From the NCBI GenBank assembly GCA_019661785.1, contig JAIFWP010000003.1:31009-95008 (forward strand): a stretch of 64,000 nucleotides of DNA, in the 5' to 3' direction. Positions 15,301 through 44,181 of this stretch are shown one piece after another. Source of the DNA: Candidatus Parcubacteria bacterium (GTDB lineage Bacteria; Patescibacteriota; Minisyncoccia; Phycocordibacterales; Zambryskibacteraceae). The translations under genes and the position numbers were made by a program. Position 1 is the stretch's first letter. Every line of letters starts with the position of its first letter. Below the pieces are notes generated by a model. The model worked only from the letters and a program-made list of their open reading frames with translations, did no database searches and was not told the DNA's origin.

Positions 15301-16653
15301 TCAGGCCCACGCCTTGTTCAAAAGCGTTTCCTCGAGCTTGTCGCGAAGGAGCATGTACACGAGCGGGCTGCGGAGAGCCAGGATCTCGAGTGCGGCCATT
15401 GCTGCATTCGATGGTTCGAGGACAGTCATGACCGGCACCCGGGATGGCGTGCGCAGCGACGACCAGACATCGTCTGGAAAGTCCTTGTAACCAGCTGGCA
15501 CGGTAATCACCGGAATGGTGGTCGAGGCCGACAGAGTCGGACCGGCACCATTCGAGCGACCGATGTAGGCGATAACTACCGCATCGGGTATCTCATGCGT
15601 CAGACGCTGGAGCTCGTCGAGCCCCCTGACCGGCTCCTTGTGAATGGAGCAGACCACCCGTCTGACCTTCACATATTCCCCGGAAGAGATTGCGGCGATG
15701 CCGAATTCACGGATACCATCTATCAGTGGAGCCACATCGTCCTTCGAGGAACCGCACCAGATGATGATCTGCTGAACCGGAAGATTGAATCGGTCCGTTG
15801 CATCGGCGACGCGGCGATACTTCTCTGCCACATCGCTCAGATCGCCGCCTTCACGGTAGACCTGCTTGTCGATGTAGGACCCGTTCTCGAGAACTCGCCA
15901 CGAATCGTTGTCGATGACGTCGGCGAGCAGAAGACCTCCATGCTGGTTCAGGCCAAACTCGACCTTAAAGTCGACGAGCACGCGCCCCTCCAGCTGCCAG
16001 GCCTTCTCGAGGATGAGGAAGGTGCGCCGAGCCATATTGATCATCTTCTCGAAGAGTTTCCACTCCTCCGGATAACCGAACACCTCGTCCTCACGAAGCG
16101 TCAGGAAGGGTTCCTGACCTCGCATTGGCTTGGCCGGATCGTAGAGGGCAATGTTGTCACTGCCGACCACAGGACCCATGAACGGATCGTCGCACGGCAG
16201 ATCATGCTGCTTCCACTTCTTGCCGCTCGTCTTCAGGAAGAACTCCCACACGAGCTTCGGGAAGTGATGTCCCTTGCGCAGGTGCGGCTCCCTCTTGAGA
16301 TACGAGCCGTGCGCTTCGCGCCGGATCACCACTTCGTACGGGAGCATCTTGCACAGCGGGGCGCTGAACGTCGTCTCGTTGACCTGCTCGATGAACGCCA
16401 CCGGAATCCCGCAGGCCCTGAGCAGGCGAAACACGTTGCAGGTTGTACGAGTTGCCCAAGCGCCCTTCCCAGGGATGATGTCGTGCTTGGCGCCGTCGCC
16501 TGCGGTGATATCATCCTTGGAAATGATGTTGACGTCGTCGGTGTCACCTTCGCGCTTGGCAATGATCTTCGTCTTGCCTTCGCTTAGGACCAGACCTCCA
16601 GCACGGGCTGAAGCTTCTGGGCCAGTTGCCACAGTAGTCATGTCTTTTCTCAC
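15301..16653 (-). CDS. Bifunctional SAICAR synthetase (PurC) fused to AIR carboxylase or N5-CAIR mutase (PurE), PAICS-like architecture
   Basis: The N-terminal half carries PurC motifs (KTKIIAK..AGDGAKHD..LVDFKVEFGL). The C-terminal roughly 160 aa carries PurE motifs (IIIWCGSSKDDVAP..SIHKEP..GRSNGAGPTLSASTTIPVITVP). Confidence 0.8.
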   Translation of the reverse strand: MRKDMTTVATGPEASARAGGLVLSEGKTKIIAKREGDTDDVNIISKDDITAGDGAKHDIIPGKGAWATRTTCNVFRLLRACGIPVAFIEQVNETTFSAPLCKMLPYEVVIRREAHGSYLKREPHLRKGHHFPKLVWEFFLKTSGKKWKQHDLPCDDPFMGPVVGSDNIALYDPAKPMRGQEPFLTLREDEVFGYPEEWKLFEKMINMARRTFLILEKAWQLEGRVLVDFKVEFGLNQHGGLLLADVIDNDSWRVLENGSYIDKQVYREGGDLSDVAEKYRRVADATDRFNLPVQQIIIWCGSSKDDVAPLIDGIREFGIAAISSGEYVKVRRVVCSIHKEPVRGLDELQRLTHEIPDAVVIAYIGRSNGAGPTLSASTTIPVITVPAGYKDFPDDVWSSLRTPSRVPVMTVLEPSNAAMAALEILALRSPLVYMLLRDKLEETLLNKAWA

Positions 16654-30692: not shown

Positions 30693-33407
30693 CTAAGATG
30701 ACCCCATTGCGTCGGTGGTAGAGTGGTCAAATACAACAGACTGTAAATCTGTCGCCCATTGGGCTTCGTTGGTTCGAATCCAACCCGGCGCACTCACATC
30801 GAAGGTAAATTCCCCACCCTTCACATCCACGACGACTGTGCCTCCGGAGAGAACCTTGTTGCCTATCATCATAGTGGCCACAGGGTTCAAAATCTTCGTC
30901 TGTATCAAGCGCTTGAGCGGCCTTGCTCCGTATTGCGGATTGTAGCCCTCCTTGCTCAAGGCCTCTAGCACGGCAGGGCTCACTATGAGCTCAATCTCCT
31001 TCTCTGCCAAGCGCTTCTTGATAGAGTCTATCTGGATGTTCACTATCTCCTTGATAGTATCTTGGCGCAGCACGTCGAAGACCGCTATCTCGTCGAGACG
31101 GTTTAGGAACTCCGGTCGGAACTGGTCTTTGAGCGCGTCGAGGACCTTCTCCTTTATGTTTTCATAATTCTCCCTCTCTCCACCCTTAGAGAAGCCGATG
31201 GACTGCATCTTGTCTATATAATTGGCGCCGACGTTCGACGTGAGGATGATGATAGTGTTCTTGAAGTTCACTACTCTGCCCTTGGCATCGGTAAGCCTGC
31301 CGTTGTCGAGCACTTGGAGGAGGATGTTGAAGACCTCTGGGTGCGCCTTCTCTATCTCATCGAAGAGGATAACCGAGTATGGCCTGTGGCGCACAAGCTC
31401 GGTGAAGTTGCCCGCATCCTCGAAGCCTACATAGCCAGGTGGCGCGCCAATGAGCTTCGACACAGAGTGCTTCTCCATGAACTCGCTCATATCTACGCGG
31501 AGGAGCGCCTTCTCGTCGTCGAACATGAACTCGGCCAAGGCTTTGGTGAGCTCTGTCTTGCCCACTCCGGTAGGACCAAGGAACATGAAGGAGCCGATAG
31601 GACGGTTGGGGTCTGAGATGCCAGCACGGCTCCTCTTCACCGTATCAGCAATCTTCTGCACAGCCTCGTCTTGGCCGACGATGCGGCGTCTTAGGAACTC
31701 TTCCATCCTGCCGAGCTTCTCTGCCTCTTCCTCAAGCATTCTTGATACTGGTATGCCGGTCCAGCGCGAGACCACATCGGCTATGTCTTGCTCGGTTATC
31801 TCTTCCTTCAATATGCGGCGCGAGCTTTGGAGCTTCTTCAGGCGCTTGCTCTTAGTGTCGAGGTCGCGCTCGAGCGCTGGTAGGCGCCCGTAACGAAGCT
31901 CGGCCGCTCGCGAGAGATCGGCTCGCGCCTCGGCTGCCTCGGCCTCTAGCCTCGTGGCTTCGAGAGCTTTCTTTATCTCCTTGATCTCGCCTACGGTCTC
32001 CTTTTCGTTCTTCCACTTCAGGTCTATCTCGGAGGTCTTCTCCTTGAGGTCGGCGATATCCTTCTCTATGACTTTAAGTCTTGCTGCGACTTTGGCACTC
32101 TTCGACTCCTTGCGCAGAGCCTCGCGCTCAATCTCCAATTTAACAACCTTAGAGTGAGTCTCCTGGAGCACAGGGGGCATGTTCTCAAGTGAGATTTTGA
32201 GGAAGGAAGCTGCCTCGTCGATGAGGTCTACAGCCTTGTCTGGGAGGAAGCGGTCTGTAATGTAGCGCGAAGAGAGGTTCACTGCGGCCTTGATAGCATC
32301 ATCGGTGATGTGCACGCCGTGGTAGAGCTCGTAGCGCTCTTTGAGTCCTCGGAGGATAGTCATGGCATCCTCGACGCTTGGCTCGTTGACGTAGACTGGC
32401 TGGAAGCGGCGTGTAAGGGCAGGATCCTTCTCTATGTGCTTCTGATACTCGCGTATGGTAGTGGCGCCGATAGCTCTCAGCTCGCCGCGAGCGAGAGGCG
32501 GCTTTAACATGTTTGACGCGTCGACAGAGCCCTCAGCTGCACCAGCGCCGACTATGGTGTGTATCTCGTCGATGAAAAGGATTATCTTGCCCTCGCTCTT
32601 CTCTATCTCTTTAATAATATTCTTCAAGCGCTCCTCGAACTCGCCTCGGTACTTGGTGCCGGCTATGAGGAGCCCCAAGTCGAGAGAGACCAGCTCTTTG
32701 TCGCGGAGTGACTCGGGCACATTGCCATTCGCCATCCTGAGAGCGAGACCCTCGGCAATAGCAGTCTTACCTACTCCAGCCTCGCCAATGAGTATTGGGT
32801 TGTTCTTCGTCCTTCTAGAGAGTATCTGTATGATGCGTGAAATCTCTTGGTCGCGTCCTATAACAGGGTCGAGCTTGTTAGCCTTAGCGAGCTTAGTGAG
32901 TGAGCGAGTGTATTTGGAAAGGGATTTGAACTTCTTCTCCTGCTTGGGCTCGGCTGGGCCAGCGTGCTTCAACTCCTCGACGAGCTTCACCACAGTCTGT
33001 CTATCAATCTTGAACTTAGTCAGGAGCTCGCGCGACTCACCTTGTACCTCAAGGACTGAGAGGAAGAGATGCTCTGTAGAAACAAATTCGTCTCCAAGTC
33101 CCTGAGCCACCTTGGAAGAAGACTCTATGATATGAGCTAGCTCTGGAGTGAGATATATCTGATATGAGGGCGAGAGGGTTTGGCTGGCTTCAGGATTCTC
33201 TATAGCCTCAAGCACTGAGTCAGTAAGTAGCAGAGTATCGACATCCATCTTGTCGAGTATGGAAATGACCATGCTCTCCTCTTGGAGGATAAGCGCTGCG
33301 AGGAGATGCATCGGGTTTACATGGTTCTGCCCACGCTCAATAGCGAGCTCATGAGCTCGGCGTATGGCCTCCTTGGCTTTGGTCGTGAAATTGCTGAAAG
33401 GTTGCAT
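30693..33407 (-). CDS. clpB: Chaperone ClpB (AAA+ disaggregase with M-domain). The annotated 3' end reads antisense through tRNA-Tyr, so the true stop is uncertain.
   Basis: Two Walker A/B modules ([10 protein letters not shown].., [10 protein letters not shown]..), a long coiled-coil insertion and Clp N repeats. The last ~30 residues are the reverse complement of the tRNA. Confidence 0.85.
30709..30792 (+). tRNA. tRNA-Tyr (anticodon GUA), long variable arm
   Basis: Acceptor GCGTCGG/CCGGCGC, anticodon loop CUGUAAA, T-loop TTCGAAT. Confidence 0.85.
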
Positions 33408-36779: not shown

Positions 36780-37109
36780 ATGAACGGAGTAAAACGAGAG
36801 AAGATAGAGGAGATACTGCGCCACTTGGCGGCGGAGTTCATATTGCGCGAGGCCACCTCCGCCTCGCTCATAACCGTTACAAGAGTTGCACTCTCTGACA
36901 CAGCCAAAGTCGCCAATATATACTTCACCACTCTCCCCGACTCCGAGGAGGATACAGCGCTCAAATTTTTACAAAGGAAAGCCCCTGAGTTTAAGGACTA
37001 CGCTCGTGACAACTCACGCGTAGGCATGCTCCCAGAGCTCCGCTTCCAGATAGACTACGGCGAGAGGAACAGGCAAAAGCTAGACGACCTTAGCCGAGGC
37101 CTTGAGTAG
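36780..37109 (+). CDS. rbfA: Ribosome-binding factor A
   Basis: 109 aa KH-like RbfA fold (ITVTRVALSDTAKVANIYFT). It sits immediately after infB, as is typical. Confidence 0.85.
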   Translation: MNGVKREKIEEILRHLAAEFILREATSASLITVTRVALSDTAKVANIYFTTLPDSEEDTALKFLQRKAPEFKDYARDNSRVGMLPELRFQIDYGERNRQKLDDLSRGLE

Positions 37110-37883
37110 ATTCTCAAACAGAGAGTAAACCGTCATCGGCCCGACTCCACCGGGTACAGGGGTGATAGCCCTTACAAGGCCTTTGACCTTTTTATAATCC
37201 ACGTCGCCGACAACCTTCTTGCCAAGGACGGTGATGCCGACATCGATGACTACCTGGTTTTTATTAACATGTGCCGGACCTATGAGACCAGGCTTCCCCA
37301 CCGCGACTATCAAGATGTCGGCAGTCTTCGTCTTCTTAGCCAAATCCTTGGTTTTATCGCTAAGTAGGGTGGCATGAGCTCCAAGGTCCTTAAGAGCCTT
37401 GTGCGTTGGTCTGCCCACGAGCTCTGAGTCTCCCACTATGACAACCTTCTTTCCAGTAACAGCGATTTTATAATACTTGAGCAAAGTAAGGATGCCCTGA
37501 GTGGTAGCCGGGGTAAAGCTCTTCCCAGTCAGGCCGTCCACATCTTTGCTTGGGTCTATGGCGCGGACGATCTTGAAGGAATCAAGCCTGGCCGGTATAG
37601 GCAGCTGGACCATGATGCCATTTATACTTTTGTCTGAATTATATCTGCGGATATCGGCCACAATCTCCTTCTGCGAAATGTTTTCTGGATACTTTTTGTG
37701 CAGTGCTACCGCACCAACTTTTTTGGCAAATAACATCTTCTTCTTTATATATGAGTTCGACTCCTTCAAGTCCCCCACTTGCACGATAACAATCTTCGGC
37801 ATGAGTCGTGACTTGCGTATCTGCTTTATGAGATCAAGGGAGAGCTTGTCTCGGAGTTTCTTGCCATCTAACGTTACTGACAT
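37080..37883 (-). CDS. folD: Bifunctional methylenetetrahydrofolate dehydrogenase/cyclohydrolase
   Basis: Contains YIKKK, VQLPIP, DVDGL and VIVGDSELVGRP. It overlaps rbfA convergently by 30 nt. Confidence 0.9.
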   Translation of the reverse strand: MSVTLDGKKLRDKLSLDLIKQIRKSRLMPKIVIVQVGDLKESNSYIKKKMLFAKKVGAVALHKKYPENISQKEIVADIRRYNSDKSINGIMVQLPIPARLDSFKIVRAIDPSKDVDGLTGKSFTPATTQGILTLLKYYKIAVTGKKVVIVGDSELVGRPTHKALKDLGAHATLLSDKTKDLAKKTKTADILIVAVGKPGLIGPAHVNKNQVVIDVGITVLGKKVVGDVDYKKVKGLVRAITPVPGGVGPMTVYSLFENLLKASAKVV

Positions 37884-38009
37884 AGGGGTTTTAGATTGGA
37901 CAAGAATGTAGCATATCTTTTGACAAAATGCTATAAAAGTTCTACTTTTGGATCAGACGGAGCTGAACCTTCAGCCAGAGACATCCACCATAAGCCCTAG
38001 GGCAAACTC

Positions 38010-39029
38010 ATGAAAAAGAAACATGCATCAAAGGAGTCCTGGGGGCTCGGACGGCTACTCAGGAAGATCGCCCCGAAGATTGGCGCGACGGTTGTCCTCG
38101 AACCTGAGTGGGAGGTCGTAGGCCAGATTGCCTTCAAGAACGGTCGGCGTTCGTACTTCCGCTACAACACGCTCGACTTAAACCCGATGGGCAGCTCGGA
38201 GATAGCCAAGGACAAGGACTATGCCAACTTCTTCATGAACGGCATGGGCTACCCTACAGTGCCAGGGAGCAAGGCCTTCTACTCCGAGGAGTGGGCCAAG
38301 GCCATCGGCTCTCCTAGCCGCAGCATCGACGCAGCATATCATCATGCACAGAAGCTCGGCTTCCCTGTCATCGTGAAGCCGAACAGTGGTAGCCAAGGTG
38401 CTGGAGTCATGCTCGTCCACAACAAGCATGAGTTCTACAAAGCCGCGCGAGCCGTCTTCAAGCGCGACAGAGTCATGCTGGTGCAGGAACAACTCCATGG
38501 CAAAGATTATCGACTGGTCGTACTCGACAAGAAGGTCATCTCGGTCTACGAGCGCATCCCGCTCTCGGTCGAAGGCAACGGCAAGTCTACAATCGGACAG
38601 CTCTTGAAGAAGAAACAGGCGCTTTTCATTGAGCTCGGCCGCGATACGAAGATCAAGGCTAAAGATCCGCGCATAGCCGCGAAGTTGAAGCACCAAGGTC
38701 TGGGACTACGTTCCGTATTGCGGAAGGGCCAGAAGATTTTCCTCCTCGACAATGCCAACCTGTCTACTGGAGGAGACTCCGTGGATGTTACCGACAAGGT
38801 GCATCCTGGGTTCAAGAAGCTCGCAGTCGAGATTACTCGCAACATGGGTCTGCGGCTTTGCGGAGTGGACTTCATGGTTGATGGAGACATCAGTGAGAAG
38901 CCGGGCGCGTACTGGGTGCTTGAGATTAACTCTGCCCCTGGTCTCGACCACTACTCAAGGATGGGCAAGGCCCAGGAGAAGATTGTCGAAGGCCTCTACC
39001 TCGAGGTCCTGAAGCACATGGAGCGCTAG
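38010..39029 (+). CDS. ATP-grasp ligase (RimK / cyanophycin-synthetase / MptN-CofF-like)
   Basis: ATP-grasp motifs FPVIVKPNSGSQGAGV, VEGNGKSTIGQL and VLEINSAPGL. Confidence 0.7.
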   Translation: MKKKHASKESWGLGRLLRKIAPKIGATVVLEPEWEVVGQIAFKNGRRSYFRYNTLDLNPMGSSEIAKDKDYANFFMNGMGYPTVPGSKAFYSEEWAKAIGSPSRSIDAAYHHAQKLGFPVIVKPNSGSQGAGVMLVHNKHEFYKAARAVFKRDRVMLVQEQLHGKDYRLVVLDKKVISVYERIPLSVEGNGKSTIGQLLKKKQALFIELGRDTKIKAKDPRIAAKLKHQGLGLRSVLRKGQKIFLLDNANLSTGGDSVDVTDKVHPGFKKLAVEITRNMGLRLCGVDFMVDGDISEKPGAYWVLEINSAPGLDHYSRMGKAQEKIVEGLYLEVLKHMER

Positions 39030-39096
39030 CCTTTGGCAAGGCCAGCCTCGATGCCGGAGTGTTCCAACACTCCGGCATTTTCTATATACTGGTCGC

Positions 39097-39585
39097 ATGG
39101 TAGAGAAACAATACTCATGCGTTATCTCATATCTGCCGCTAGAGAACGAGCCCGACTATACGCACACGGCTTTCCCGCTATCCATTGGTCCAAACTACTT
39201 GGAACTCTCTAGCGACAAAGGGAGCGACCCTTATGCATGGGCGGAAAAGTGCGTATCCACTTTTAGCAAAGACGTGCCTTGCGTGCTTGTGCCTGGTACC
39301 CGCTTCGACATGAGTGGCACTCGACACGGCAAAGGCGGTGGCTGGTATGACCGCTTCCTATCTAAAATACCTTCTCATTGGACTCGCATAGGCATCGCTC
39401 ATAAGCGTCAGCTCTCAGACCAGAAACTCCTAAGACAAGCATGGGACCAACCCGTAGACTTGTTAGCTATATATGATGGTTCATACTGGAGCTTGATCGA
39501 AACGCACGCACGCACGGATGTGCGAGATGCGAGAATCGAACTCGCGCCCGATGCTTGGGAAGCACCAGTTCTACCACTAAACTAA
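39097..39585 (+). CDS. 5-formyltetrahydrofolate cyclo-ligase family protein
   Basis: Signature GKGGGWYDR. The stop overlaps the 5' end of tRNA-Gly on the opposite strand by 9 nt. Confidence 0.65.
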
Positions 39586-39591
39586 TCTCGC
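39521..39591 (-). tRNA. tRNA-Gly (anticodon CCC)
   Basis: Acceptor GCGAGAT/ATCTCGC, anticodon loop UUCCCAA, T-loop TTCGATT. Confidence 0.8.
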
Positions 39592-39593
39592 AG

Positions 39594-39676
39594 TGCCCGG
39601 GGTGAGACTCGAACTCACAAGGCCTTGCGGCCAAAGGATTTTAAGTCCTTCGTGTATACCATTCCACCACCCGGGC
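39594..39676 (-). tRNA. tRNA-Leu (anticodon UAA), long variable arm
   Basis: Acceptor GCCCGGG/CCCGGGC, anticodon loop CUUAAAA, T-loop TTCGAGT. Confidence 0.8.
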
Positions 39677-39678
39677 AG

Positions 39679-39750
39679 AGGCCTAGGGCGGAATCGCACC
39701 GCCGTATAACTCTTTTGCAGAGAGTTGCCTTACTACTTGGCGACTAGGCC
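39679..39750 (-). tRNA. tRNA-Cys (anticodon GCA)
   Basis: Acceptor GGCCTAG/CTAGGCC, discriminator U, anticodon loop CUGCAAA. Confidence 0.75.
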
Positions 39751-39834
39751 GTCCGCTCTACATTATCACAATTTCTTTTGATTACCTGAGCTTAATCTGT
39801 TACCCTCAACAGAGACTTCTTTCAGGAGACATTT

Positions 39835-40260
39835 GTGTCGCATACTCAATCGAGGGGCATCTACCGCCCCAAGCATTGGCACGCTGCTGCTGTGGCTGTA
39901 GAAGCGGGGCTCCATGCTCGCTATGGCAAGACATGGGAAGCTACCAAGTATCCCATCGGCGCTCTGGCCTCCATAGGACGCCTCTTCTACTGGGCGCTCG
40001 AAGGTCTGAAGCAGGCTGCCGGCGAGGAGACTCACTCCAAGATGCCAAGCATGGCTGGCACAGCGTGCGTCAGAACTGTGACAGCAGTGATGGAAGGGAT
40101 GGGACGCAAGGCCACTTCGAGGAATATCGGCAAGCTAGCCCTCGGCCATCATGACCTTATCCGGCGGATACAGCAGAACTACCTCATCACGGGGTCTGAC
40201 GCCGAGCGCCGGAGGTTGAGACAGTTCCTGCAAAAGCTCATAGAGCTTGGTGAATCGTAG
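39835..40260 (+). CDS. Hypothetical protein (GTG start; low confidence)
   Basis: 141 aa GC-rich ORF with no recognisable motif. Confidence 0.3.
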   Translation: MSHTQSRGIYRPKHWHAAAVAVEAGLHARYGKTWEATKYPIGALASIGRLFYWALEGLKQAAGEETHSKMPSMAGTACVRTVTAVMEGMGRKATSRNIGKLALGHHDLIRRIQQNYLITGSDAERRRLRQFLQKLIELGES

Positions 40261-40342
40261 CCGCGAGCAATCGCGGCTTCATCATTCACTTTTCATAATT
40301 TGTATTGAAAAAAAGCCAGTTTCTTGAGATACTCAACTGCAC

Positions 40343-40415
40343 GCACCCTTAGCTCAGCTGGTAGAGCAGATCCCTCTTAAGGATAAGGTCGTTGGTTCGA
40401 TCCCAACAGGGTGCA
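40343..40415 (+). tRNA. tRNA-Lys (anticodon CUU)
   Basis: Acceptor GCACCCT/AGGGTGC, anticodon loop CUCUUAA, T-loop TTCGATC. Confidence 0.8.
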
Positions 40416-40503
40416 CAAGTGCGGGGCACTTGTGCAAGCCGGAGGCCGACGGGCCGAGGCGGGGTCGCACAAATCCCGAGCACGGGATTATGTGTGACCA
40501 CAT
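40416..40503 (+). repeat. Third copy of the tRNA-associated conserved element, here filling the tRNA-Lys to tRNA-Leu spacer
   Basis: AAGCCGGAG-GCCGACGGGCC-GAGGCGGGGUCGCA-caaAUCCCGagcaCGGGAUua-UGUGUGACC. The core is conserved and both hairpins are maintained by compensatory changes relative to the other two copies. Confidence 0.55.
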
Positions 40504-40587
40504 GGGCGGGTGGTGAAATGGTAGACACGCCAGTTTTAGGAACTGGTTCCGCAAGGAGTGGAGGTTCAAGTCCTCTCCCGCCCACCA
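40504..40587 (+). tRNA. tRNA-Leu (anticodon UAG), CCA encoded
   Basis: Acceptor GGGCGGG/CCCGCCC-A-CCA, anticodon loop UUUAGGA, long variable arm. Confidence 0.85.
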
Positions 40588-40690: not shown

Positions 40691-41977
40691 ATGGGAACCA
40701 TCGTATTGTTTCTGATTCTGCTCGGTATCTCCTACTTTGCCGTAGGATGGTTCGTGCGGAGATGCGCAAGAAGGATGCTGCCATCGGGCAAGAAGGATGC
40801 GGAAGGCAACGAAATTATGGTGCCGAAGCCTCTCTTCTGGTACTTCCAGCCGGCCAACACCACTGCTTACCAGCAGAAGGCAGGCAACGATGCCGACTCA
40901 ATCGGCAAAGGCTCGAAGGCCACACCAGGAAAAGGGAGCGGCATCCTGCATGTCACCCACGAAGTGCCGGGCAAAATCCTCGACAGGAGCGACCCCGACA
41001 ACACCAAGTGGACATTCGTTGACCGCGCGGCAGGCCAGTTTGAGACAGGCCACAGGAGTCGCAGAGGGCTCTTCTACTACCTCTACGGCGTGCACAGCCT
41101 GGGTCCGTGGAACGAGCTCCGCACCGTGAAGGTGCGCGAAGTCCGCCTCACTATCGACGAGGACGAGCTCAAGGCCTATCGCAAAGACATGGCGAAGTGG
41201 GAAGAAGGCGGCAAAGAAGGCCCAAAGCCCAAAGAGCCGACCTACCAGGAGCATGTCAAGGACTACGAAACCCTCTTCCCCTACTACTCACGCGAGCATG
41301 GGGTTGCGGTTCGGAAGTCCGAGACGACGGGCGCTTACCCGCTCGATGTCTACAACAATGTCATCTACGAGGAGACCCACCCAGTCAAGGCCCGGCTCGA
41401 AGTGGCCGACCCCAACGCTACGCTCGCCGAGTTCGTCGAGCAAAGCGTCAACACTGAGACGGGTGGTCACGTACCAGAGTACTTCGTCTCCGAGAAGCTC
41501 GTGAACGAGACTACCACTCTCACTTTGAGGGAGCGGAAGGCGGCGTTCATCGATACTGTTACGGCAGAAGTCGCCAAACAGGCTCTCGAAGGCATCGGAC
41601 TCAAGGTGAAGAAGTTCATCCTCTACTCCATCGACATGGACGAGGAGATGCGGAGGCTCCTCGAGCTTCAGCAGACGACGGAGCGAGAGGAGCAGGCACG
41701 GATACTCACCGCCAGACGCGAGGTCACGGTCGCAATCCAAACAGCTCGCAAAAGAGCCGTTGAGGCTGCAGGCGAGCGGCGAGCGGAAATCGAGTTGAAC
41801 ACGGCCGAAGCTGACCGTGTGGCGAGAGTCATCCTGCCTATCGCGCGTGAACCCCGGGCAGCCGCTGTACGATTCTTCGAGGCTTACGAGAACAACAAGA
41901 CAGTAACCTCATTCGCCATGGGTGGGGACTTGTCCAAGATGATGCCTGACAACATTATCGTTCCAGTGAGCAAGTAG
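40691..41977 (+). CDS. Membrane-anchored protein with a C-terminal coiled coil; SPFH/band-7-like (tentative)
   Basis: N-terminal TM and a C-terminal Ala/Arg/Glu-rich coiled coil. GC-richer than the window average. Confidence 0.4.
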   Translation: MGTIVLFLILLGISYFAVGWFVRRCARRMLPSGKKDAEGNEIMVPKPLFWYFQPANTTAYQQKAGNDADSIGKGSKATPGKGSGILHVTHEVPGKILDRSDPDNTKWTFVDRAAGQFETGHRSRRGLFYYLYGVHSLGPWNELRTVKVREVRLTIDEDELKAYRKDMAKWEEGGKEGPKPKEPTYQEHVKDYETLFPYYSREHGVAVRKSETTGAYPLDVYNNVIYEETHPVKARLEVADPNATLAEFVEQSVNTETGGHVPEYFVSEKLVNETTTLTLRERKAAFIDTVTAEVAKQALEGIGLKVKKFILYSIDMDEEMRRLLELQQTTEREEQARILTARREVTVAIQTARKRAVEAAGERRAEIELNTAEADRVARVILPIAREPRAAAVRFFEAYENNKTVTSFAMGGDLSKMMPDNIIVPVSK

Positions 41978-43095: not shown

Positions 43096-43362
43096 TTACT
43101 GGCTTAGGTATGCAGGATCTTTGAGGCCGAAGGTGCCAAGGACAACGTGGATGAGACCGTAGGCGCTAAACATGATGAGCATGCCGATGAGGCCGTAGAC
43201 TATTTTCTTTTTGCCCGTGTCTCTCTCTGCACCATCTCCGGCAGAGCGGATGAACTGGAAGAGCCCAATGAAGAAGACGACGAAGGCTATGCCAAACAGG
43301 AGAAGGATTATCGGGTTAAGGATAGCGTCGTTGAACTTGTTCAGGAATGGAGTTATATCCAT
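43096..43362 (-). CDS. Small two-helix membrane protein, paralog family member 1 (TrbC/VirB2 pilin-like; no signal peptide)
   Basis: Shared core FIGLFQFIRSAGDGAERDTGKKKIVYGLIGMLIMFSAYGL. Confidence 0.55.
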   Translation of the reverse strand: MDITPFLNKFNDAILNPIILLLFGIAFVVFFIGLFQFIRSAGDGAERDTGKKKIVYGLIGMLIMFSAYGLIHVVLGTFGLKDPAYLSQ

Positions 43363-43373
43363 CTCCCAGTAGA

Positions 43374-43751
43374 CTAGTTAACTGTAGGGTTGATGCCAGG
43401 AACAGTAGGAAGCGAGCCGGATGAACCGCCAGTGCCGATACCAAGCGAGCTAGCTACGAACTTGACGAGGCCCCAGACTGCGACCATCACGAAGAGGGTG
43501 ACGATGCCGTAAATCATAATCTTCTTGCCCTCTTCCTTAGCCTCTTCGTTGCCTGCATTGAAGATGAACTTCATGAGACCCCAGAAGAATCCGAGGAGCG
43601 CAAGACCTACTACTATAGGAAGTGCTGTACCTACCCATCCAGCGACCGTGGTCATGAATGCGCTAAGGCCGGTCGTAGTGTTGGTAGTGGTTATCTGTGC
43701 CATGGCCAAACCCGGAGCGAGAGCGGCAAGAGCGATAATAATCTTTTTCAT
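43374..43751 (-). CDS. Small secreted/membrane protein, paralog 2 (signal peptide plus two hydrophobic helices; TrbC/VirB2 pilin-like)
   Basis: Signal peptide ..GLAMA|Q, core LLGFFWGLMKFIFNAGNEEAKEEGKKIMIYGIVTLFVMVAVWGLVKFV. Confidence 0.6.
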   Translation of the reverse strand: MKKIIIALAALAPGLAMAQITTTNTTTGLSAFMTTVAGWVGTALPIVVGLALLGFFWGLMKFIFNAGNEEAKEEGKKIMIYGIVTLFVMVAVWGLVKFVASSLGIGTGGSSGSLPTVPGINPTVN

Positions 43752-43872: not shown

Positions 43873-44181
43873 CTACTTCGAAATAGGCACCTGGATAATA
43901 CCCGACACAGTGCCGCCAGTGCCGATGCCAAGCGACTCGGCTACGAACTTGACGAGGCCCCAGACTGCGACCATCACGAAGAGAGCGATGATACCCCAGA
44001 GCATGACACGCTTGCCCTCCTCCTGCGCCGACTCATCGCCCGCCTTGAAGACAAACTTCATGAGTCCAAAGAGGAAGGCTAGAAGCGCCAAAGCTACTGT
44101 AAGCGGTATAGCTCGGCTGATTATGGTATTGGTTGCCTGTATGGCTTGGAGTATGCCGGTTGCTGCTAGTTGGTTGAACAT
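43873..44181 (-). CDS. Small membrane protein, paralog 3
   Basis: Core LLAFLFGLMKFVFKAGDESAQEEGKRVMLWGIIALFVMVAVWGLVKFV, about 75% identical to paralog 2 over this stretch. Confidence 0.6.
   Translation of the reverse strand: MFNQLAATGILQAIQATNTIISRAIPLTVALALLAFLFGLMKFVFKAGDESAQEEGKRVMLWGIIALFVMVAVWGLVKFVAESLGIGTGGTVSGIIQVPISK

Follow-up and report, generated by a model that had tools for sequence, protein, structure and literature searches.

A stand-alone ATP-grasp ligase linked to folate genes in Patescibacteria and its proposed role at the folate glutamate tail

What does an ATP-grasp ligase do among folate genes? The question is raised by a 64-kb stretch of contig JAIFWP010000003.1 from a Candidatus Parcubacteria bacterium (the window, by which we mean the whole stretch analysed), where the gene for a stand-alone ATP-grasp ligase lies between folD and a gene of the 5-formyltetrahydrofolate (5-formyl-THF) cyclo-ligase family, MTHFS. 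A preliminary description, made from the letters of the stretch, had named these three genes, and our analysis bears all three out at the positions it gave. We find that the ligase is linked to folate genes in Patescibacteria well beyond the window. From this genomic association, and by analogy with other cofactor pathways, we propose that it may be a folate-tail ligase, working in folate salvage and one-carbon metabolism together with FolC2 or FolC and adding an amino acid to the glutamate tail of folate. We hold this proposal tentatively, at rather less than an even chance.

Linkage of the ligase to folate genes

To describe the setting of the ligase we fetched 80 loci from 80 species-level Patescibacteria genomes. 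Unbiased clustering of the open reading frames (ORFs) within 3.5 kb of the ligase, performed on 84 loci with no prior labels and with identities confirmed by Pfam, gave the CofE-type ligase FolC2 (PF01996) as the most frequent neighbour, at 33 loci. The other folate and nucleotide genes were short MTHFS (17 loci), dihydrofolate reductase (DHFR; 12), dCTP deaminase (Dcd; 10), FolD (8), ThyA (8), a RibD_C-type reductase (8), dCMP deaminase (7), PurL (7) and GlyA (6). An ABC-F ATPase (15 loci) and a SIMPL-NusG-L11 block (11-12 loci) recurred as non-folate neighbours. We then recounted the genes of the folate and thymidylate cycle within about 8 kb, using hidden Markov models (HMMs) built from the neighbour clusters. 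At least one such gene was present in 47 of 80 loci, and in 36 of 80 a folate gene lay no more than 300 bp from the ligase. The gene directly adjacent was FolC2 in 21 loci, MTHFS in 11, FolD in 6, DHFR in 3, and FolC and RibD_C in one each; by a rough estimate, with 8-9 such genes taken per genome of about 800 genes, adjacency by chance would be expected in 2-3%. The folate setting that the preliminary description had seen around the ATP-grasp gene is thus no local accident, and the linkage is conserved in relatives. Of the two conditions that together were to refute its reading, a folC elsewhere in the genome and a lack of conserved linkage, the first is suggested by relatives and the second is clearly false.

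The identity of the chief partner is informative. The CofE-type neighbours fitted TIGR04132, 'putative folate metabolism gamma-glutamate ligase', better than they fitted CofE, and a Chlamydia member of the FolC2 type (CT611) complements an E. coli folC mutant (PMC1971073). Elsewhere the neighbour was a true Mur-type FolC, which scored 300-313 bits on TIGR01499 (cutoff 163). This is a non-orthologous displacement of the partner with the linkage kept. Overall, 35 of 80 loci held FolC2 or FolC, in 22 of them next to the ligase.

Spacing was close, with gaps to the ATP-grasp gene of 0-139 bp from FolC2 and of -13 to 77 bp from FolD, and the arrangements of the ligase with its folate partners varied between co-directional, convergent and divergent. 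The reciprocal view gave the ligase within 700 bp in 8 of the 41 FolC2-centred metagenome loci with adequate flanks, where we roughly estimate chance adjacency at about 0.3%. Given two unrelated partners, varied order and orientation, operon-like spacing and the reciprocal view, the linkage is more than inherited synteny. One set of clusters, taken up again below, has the order SIMPL-NusG-L11-(RibD_C)-FolC2-[ATP-grasp]-dCMP deaminase-DHFR-ThyA. The layout of the window itself, with folD divergent from the ATP-grasp gene and MTHFS, recurs in one further locus (L020), and another (L012) reads folD / ATP-grasp / FolC2. The features of the window at this point are as follows.

37080-37883, minus strand: folD, bifunctional methylene-THF dehydrogenase / methenyl-THF cyclohydrolase, 267 amino acids
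37884-38009: divergent intergenic spacer between folD and the ATP-grasp gene, 126 bp, assigned by position
38010-39029, plus strand: stand-alone ATP-grasp ligase gene, 339 amino acids, CphA-G / GshF structural class
39050-39079, plus strand: hairpin with a 13-bp stem, from a scan for terminator-like structures
39097-39585, plus strand: gene of the short MTHFS (5-formyl-THF cyclo-ligase) family, 162 amino acids
39520-39591, minus strand: tRNA-Gly(CCC), found by ARAGORN; 65.5 bits on the Rfam tRNA model

Structural class, active site and conservation of the ligase

The ligase is a member of the ATP-grasp superfamily, with 57 bits on PF08443 (cutoff 21) and 54 on PF07478 (cutoff 24). Its top HMM match was the G domain of cyanophycin synthetase, CphA (TIGR02068, 3e-48), and the next were the ATP-grasp module of GshAB (NF002688, 1.5e-44) and N-acetylglutaminylglutamine synthetase (Ngg; 2.7e-29). 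MptN (5e-12), CofF (2.6e-8), the RimK S6 ligase (6.9e-7) and likewise the D-Ala-D-Ala ligase Ddl matched at the generic ATP-grasp level, and the ligase reached the cutoff of none among these curated NCBIfam models. Sequence matches in the PDB were to 7wac, 3ln7 and 8fxh at 1e-26 to 1e-28, rising to 1e-44 to 1e-48 in the same ranking when a family profile was used. We also searched with an AlphaFold2 model (predicted local distance difference test, pLDDT, 77.6; predicted template modelling score, pTM, 0.74). The top 18 Foldseek matches were all CphA1, CphA2 or GshF (E 1e-15 to 1e-22, TM 0.52-0.67), followed after a clear drop by Ddl and RimK at about 1e-10. The preliminary description had called the protein 'RimK/CphA/MptN-like', a label that proved too broad: the likeness to CphA stands, while HMM, PDB sequence and fold all speak against RimK and MptN. 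The comparison with MptN, CofF, RimK and CphA that it had recommended accordingly gave the CphA-G/GshF type and not the RimK/MptN/CofF type.

Comparison with the individual known families supports this placement and sets the ligase apart from each of them. It scored 45.5 bits on the MptN model NF040720 (cutoff 350) and 33.3 on the CofF model TIGR04443 (cutoff 300). For RimK the scores were 65 bits on TIGR00768 (cutoff 143) and 29 on NF007764 (cutoff 331), and the structural matches stood at 1e-10 against 1e-22 for the best class. For D-Ala-D-Ala ligase they were 50 bits on TIGR01205 (cutoff 246) and 55 on NF002378 (cutoff 243); no mur or fts family was among the recurrent neighbours of the ligase in more than 80 loci. 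On the GshAB model NF002688 it reached 152.6 bits against a cutoff of 425, lacks a GshA domain and has Gln in the P-loop. The score on TIGR02068 was 164.5 bits against a cutoff of 850, with only model positions 234-458 of 862 matched, and the 339-residue protein is without the N and M domains of the N-G-M architecture of CphA1. A cyanophycin synthetase split over two genes is also excluded, because the adjacent Mur-type ligases are FolC, scoring 300-313 bits on the folC model as given above and 44-52 on CphA.

The G domain of CphA1 and CphA2 (7WAC, 7LG5, 7TA5, 8FXH) was the best match overall, at 1e-47 by profile and 1e-20 to 1e-22 by Foldseek (TM about 0.65), and shares with the ligase its module layout, the G-omega insertion and the ANLSTGG large loop. 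CphA differs in carrying a primer-anchoring N domain and a Mur-like M domain, whereas the ligase stands alone, and in its genomic context, which is cphB and nitrogen storage for CphA and folate for the ligase. GshF/GshAB (3LN6, 3LN7) matched at a level equal to CphA (1.5e-44; Foldseek 2e-21); it has a GshA domain, whereas the ligase has none and no gshA was seen in its neighbourhoods. GshF and CphA are alike in their chemistry: both join an amino acid to a C-terminal alpha-carboxylate, as Ngg probably also does. The public names for the family are 'cyanophycin synthetase' (NCBI) and 'D-Ala-D-Ala ligase-like' (JGI). Judged by its sequence, the ligase is instead a separate, uncharacterised subfamily of the CphA-G/GshF class.

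We next mapped the residues of the ligase onto the structure of Trichodesmium CphA1, with residue roles taken from PMC9427784. K69, K123, R168, R182, N250, D287, E305 and G311, the equivalents of CphA K220, K261, R309, R323, N394, D431, E450 and G456, were invariant in 84 family sequences, as was N307. The invariant set thus covers the hallmarks of ATP-grasp enzymes, two lysines for the ATP phosphates, the Asp and Glu-x-Asn that bind Mg, and the Arg of the acyl-phosphate step. Given that the catalytic residues are all invariant the enzyme should be active, and the 339-residue protein should thus be an ATP-dependent carboxylate-amine ligase. The positions that set specificity were different. 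His267 of the CphA P-loop is Gln129 in the ligase (77 of 84 sequences), where GshF has Tyr or Phe. Asp313, part of an invariant PGLDHY motif, takes the place of Arg458 in 84 of 84, at a position that is Met or Tyr in GshF. The counterpart of Glu215 is Glu/Asp64, acidic in 78 of 84. In CphA, Arg458 binds the alpha-carboxylate of the incoming Asp and Glu215 the Arg side chain of the primer, and both the CphA1 G domain and GshF phosphorylate a C-terminal backbone alpha-carboxylate before adding an amino acid (PMC9427784). The ligase is also strongly basic, with a median isoelectric point of 9.9 (FolC2, 9.8; FolC, 9.4), a charge compatible with a polyanionic substrate.

A protein search returned 3130 homologues at E<=1e-5. 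Among the 120 matches listed, 119 were non-identical proteins with 70-76% identity, and all of these with an organism name were from Patescibacteria; the identical protein is on record from a 'Candidatus Parcubacteria bacterium'. An exhaustive search of 50%-identity representatives gave 370 clusters at E<=1e-30, mostly of stand-alone proteins of 320-360 amino acids, and a second search, seeded with an outlier of 46% identity, found Patescibacteria only. The family is therefore largely confined to this group. Within it, the median identity of the ligase between species was 64%, close to that of L11 (61%) and NusG (72%) for the same genome pairs, while the metabolic neighbours stood at 30-53% (FolC2 46%, short MTHFS 43%, GlyA 53%, DHFR 52%). 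A metabolic-looking ligase thus evolves as slowly as core informational proteins.

More distant homologues were varied in build and setting. Those with 34-46% identity have mixed contexts; in one MTHFS adjoins (L090), and another lies beside a SecE-NusG-L11 block (L091). Six proteins of about 620-650 amino acids (P0194, P0207, P0220, P0222, P0235 and P0254) each have two tandem ATP-grasp domains of the same class as the ligase, P0190 and P0260 (1100-1500 amino acids) have an added acylphosphatase domain, with LPG_synthase_C also in P0190, and P0264 (1491 amino acids) was matched over three stretches. These look like multi-step peptide-building enzymes. The multi-domain relatives scanned contained no fusion to a folate domain, only tandem ATP-grasp domains with or without acylphosphatase and LPG_synthase_C. 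On a contig from outside the Candidate Phyla Radiation (CPR), the gene of a 34%-identity homologue and one for a MoaA-type radical SAM protein overlap at the stop codon of the latter (L089, 6001-8020). This molybdopterin-synthesis context is a single case of a different pterin-related setting.

The short MTHFS and the surroundings of the three genes

The MTHFS-family protein scored 48 bits on PF01812 (cutoff 27), matching only the C-terminal half of the model (positions 117-183), and 62 bits on TIGR02727, below the cutoff of 84.9. It carries the glycine-rich loop (canonical G-x-G-x-G-Y-Y-D-R), which is invariant across 18 aligned CPR homologues. Alignment with PDB sequences indicated that the N-terminal 25-30 residues of the canonical enzyme, its helix 1, are absent in 18 of 18 ligase-adjacent CPR homologues, and the N terminus of the window copy is shorter still. 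The gene that the preliminary description had placed in the MTHFS family thus encodes a short form. In canonical MTHFS, helix 1 carries conserved Lys/Arg residues that contact ATP. The ligase and MTHFS genes were the most tightly spaced of the pairs (-3 to 82 bp), and the pair was retained around a homologue of 46% identity (L090). This spacing and persistence make a functional partnership of the two worth considering; in a bolder variant, the ligase and the N-terminally truncated MTHFS would form a two-protein unit acting on 5-formyl-THF.

Over its final 66 bases the MTHFS ORF is read antisense to tRNA-Gly(CCC). The conserved part of the protein stops near 39514, and the tail encoded at 39514-39585 is absent from 17 of 17 aligned homologues and so is peculiar to the window. 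Similarly, the C-terminal tail of a ClpB ORF (30693-30793) runs antisense through tRNA-Tyr (30709-30793, plus strand). The tRNA-Gly(CCC) opens a minus-strand run of three tRNAs and lies outside the folate unit; position 39591, where the preliminary description had ended the folate neighbourhood, is the end of this tRNA.

The folD product matched both FolD Pfam domains (PF02882, 1.9e-49; PF00763, 1.5e-28), and its top NCBIfam matches were all FolD (2e-66). It missed the equivalog cutoffs (224 against 423 bits), as divergent CPR proteins usually do. The promoters of folD and of the ATP-grasp gene are presumed to lie in the 126-bp spacer between them (37884-38009), where no consensus promoter was found. 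After the stop codon of the ATP-grasp gene and before the start codon of the MTHFS-like gene lies the hairpin at 39050-39079, with a 4-nt loop (GATGCCGGAGTGT-TCCA-ACACTCCGGCATT) and a weak T tail; it might serve as a terminator or an attenuator, or in the stability of the mRNA. A search for riboswitches (THF, ZTP) with Rfam gave only tRNAs in the window at 36-41 kb at E<=1, and none was found in eight related loci at the gathering score. FolC, FolC2, DHFR, ThyA and GlyA were not found within the 64-kb window.

Elsewhere in the window, the ORF at 15301-16653 (minus strand) encodes a PurC-PurE fusion (SAICAR synthetase and AIR carboxylase) that recalls eukaryotic PAICS; part of purine synthesis, a folate-dependent pathway, has thus been kept in this small genome. 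A type IV secretion pilin (PF18895) is present on the minus strand as three paralogues in tandem, at 43096-43362, 43374-43751 and 43873-44181, just past a five-tRNA cluster (39520-40587) and a stretch at 40-42 kb with higher GC and AT skew, which encodes an SPFH/Band-7 protein (40691-41977). This region of pilins, tRNAs and skewed composition may be an integrated element.

A possible folate-tail ligase and its alternatives

These data allow us to propose a mechanism. The ligase would phosphorylate a carboxylate left free on the tail of glutamates in a folyl(poly)glutamate, probably the terminal alpha-carboxylate, given that its relatives all activate a C-terminal alpha-carboxylate. An amino acid, most simply L-glutamate, would then be joined to the activated carboxylate, and the tail built by FolC2 or FolC would thereby be extended or capped. 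In the window, the ligase would act paired with the short MTHFS, for the recycling or salvage of 5-formyl-THF, and with FolD. FolC/FolC2 and the ligase are alike in forming an amide from a carboxylate at the expense of ATP or GTP and in sharing a pathway neighbourhood; they differ in fold, which is unrelated, and in linkage, as FolC and FolC2 form gamma bonds whereas the relatives of the ligase form alpha bonds, and the two co-occur rather than replace one another.

Other glutamyl-tailed cofactors offer a parallel. In F420, gamma-glutamylation by CofE is followed by an alpha-glutamate cap added by the ATP-grasp enzyme CofF, and MptN adds glutamate to tetrahydromethanopterin (H4MPT) in the biosynthesis of tetrahydrosarcinapterin. 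The analogy with CofE and CofF is functional: a CofE-family ligase, here FolC2, adjoins an ATP-grasp ligase, and the cofactor, one of one-carbon or redox metabolism, carries a glutamyl tail. Here folate would be the tailed cofactor, and genes for F420 or methanopterin were not seen; CofF and MptN are of the RimK family, whereas the ligase is of the non-orthologous CphA-G/GshF class. The ATP-grasp glutamate ligases MyfA and MyfB build the polyglutamate side chain of methylofuran (PMC8141765), MyfB being MptN/RimK-like and of another ATP-grasp clade, with another cofactor, than the ligase. For E. coli folates, PMC1971073 cites a report of distal glutamates in alpha linkage (Ferone 1986). A more specific suggestion is that Patescibacteria make a folate derivative as yet undescribed in bacteria, in which an alpha-linked residue is added after the gamma-glutamyl tail that FolC2 or FolC places on salvaged folate. 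We know of no gene assigned to the alpha-linked folylpolyglutamate activity. The added residue could be glutamate or, in view of the Arg-to-Asp change at the nucleophile site, a non-acidic one. We regard such a derivative as possible but on the unlikely side; if it exists, the ligase would be the first gene assigned to folate tails linked through the alpha-carboxyl, and would match, by convergence, the CofE/CofF and MptN systems of archaea.

Several observations weigh against a role at the folate tail. Thirty-three of the 80 loci have no folate gene in reach, and seen from FolC2 the ligase is adjacent in only about 20% of loci. In the set of clusters whose order is given above, near-identical clusters occur with the ligase (L127, L132, L137 and L167) and without it (L103, L134 and L139), which makes it either accessory or relocatable. 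Dcd, dCMP deaminase and PurL are also in the clusters, and given these deoxynucleotide and purine genes it may be too narrow to speak of 'folate'. Where identity falls below about 40%, homologues have unrelated neighbours, MetRS/TatD for one (L088) and MoaA for the other (L089). The change of Arg458 to an invariant Asp313 does not fit a Glu or Asp nucleophile bound as in CphA, so that the nucleophile may not be an ordinary acidic amino acid held in that way. Beyond the ATP-grasp superfamily the ligase is unrelated to the known cofactor alpha-glutamate ligases. Our literature search gave no paper tying an ATP-grasp enzyme to MTHFS or to folate metabolism in Patescibacteria, and no biochemical or genetic evidence on members of the family.

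Other explanations of the linkage have to be set beside the one proposed. The preliminary description had suggested a non-orthologous ligase that itself adds glutamate to folate or pterin in an organism that may lack FolC; the ATP-grasp enzyme would then be a dihydrofolate synthase/folylpolyglutamate synthase (DHFS/FPGS) in place of FolC. ATP-grasp chemistry would be adequate for the reaction, the 64-kb window has neither FolC nor FolC2, several large folate clusters with the ligase have no FolC2 within 8 kb (L013, L018, L054, L057, L074 and L082), and in some gene orders the ligase fills roughly the slot of FolC2. This suggestion is weakened by FolC2 or FolC being the most frequent immediate neighbour (21 + 1 of 80 loci), since FolC-type enzymes beside the ligase mean that two activities coexist; their presence in 35 of 80 loci is co-occurrence and not mutual exclusion. 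The close relatives of known function make alpha-peptide bonds where FPGS makes gamma bonds, and the lack of FolC in a 16-kb neighbourhood is little guide to the genome as a whole. We therefore consider a FolC substitute improbable. A rather better case, though still an unlikely one, can be made for an enzyme that adds amino acids to some small molecule other than folate, for instance a dipeptide, an osmolyte, a thiol of the glutathione kind or an intermediate of a nucleotide pathway, and that travels with a conserved nucleotide and one-carbon block. The nearest families make glutathione, N-acetylglutaminylglutamine and cyanophycin, the clusters also hold Dcd, dCMP deaminase, PurL, ABC-F and the L11/NusG/SIMPL block, and both the clusters with and without the ligase and the unrelated contexts of distant homologues would fit. 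However, a folate-tail ligase, of one or the other of two unrelated types, leads the list of neighbours by a wide margin, the linkage outlasts many rearrangements of order and orientation and is hard to ascribe to inherited synteny alone, and the partner genes of the glutathione (GshA), Ngg (GNAT, AsnO) and cyanophycin (CphB) pathways were not seen close by.

The slow evolution of the ligase raises the question of whether its target is a protein, ribosomal or otherwise conserved, whose C-terminal tail it would lengthen with added residues as RimK does. Its conservation is exceptional for a CPR metabolic enzyme (64%, with L11 at 61% and NusG at 72%), it is basic, and it adjoins the SecE-NusG-L11 block in 11-12 loci. 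That adjacency, however, reflects one syntenic block that also holds folate genes, the operon-like coupling is to FolC2, MTHFS or FolD and not to ribosomal genes, and the RimK-family scores fall far under their cutoffs (65 against 143; 29 against 331), which leaves a protein modifier quite improbable. We give about as little credit to a reaction like that of PurT or PurP, in which the enzyme would turn formate or some other one-carbon acid into an acyl phosphate and pass it on to THF, thus feeding MTHFS and FolD and making the trio of the window a route of formate assimilation. FolD, the ATP-grasp gene and MTHFS are indeed just what the window holds, no pair is more tightly spaced than ATP-grasp and MTHFS, which persists to 46% identity, the change of R458 to D313 removes the residue that binds an amino-acid alpha-carboxylate and would fit a nucleophile that is not an amino acid, and the PurC-PurE fusion indicates purine synthesis in the genome. 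In contrast, the sequence and the G-omega 'large loop' (ANLSTGG, R182, N250) are of the amino-acid-adding type, similarity to PurT/PurK is negligible (PF02222, 21.8 bits; cutoff 27), the dominant partner is FolC2 and not MTHFS or FolD, and a route by way of 5-formyl-THF would waste ATP. The names in public annotation, cyanophycin synthetase or D-Ala-D-Ala ligase-like, have in their favour their sources and the best HMM match, TIGR02068, but are scarcely credible: the protein has the G domain only and no N or M domain, His267 is replaced by Gln and Arg458 by Asp, and scores on the Ddl models are 50-55 bits, with cutoffs near 245. Both names are effectively refuted by the domain content together with the signature residues.

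Folate metabolism is among the best-charted of pathways, yet in the Patescibacteria, a very large radiation of bacteria, the gene clusters for folate salvage and thymidylate contain a slowly evolving enzyme for which we found no function established by experiment. Its placement corrects a widespread misannotation as 'cyanophycin synthetase' or 'D-Ala-D-Ala ligase-like'. Should the ligase act on folate, as we tentatively propose, a new reaction and probably a new form of the cofactor would join the pathway, and an old, gene-less report of alpha-linked folylpolyglutamates would gain a concrete gene family. A folate-tail ligase would also help to explain how ultra-small, host-dependent bacteria retain or tailor the folate they scavenge.

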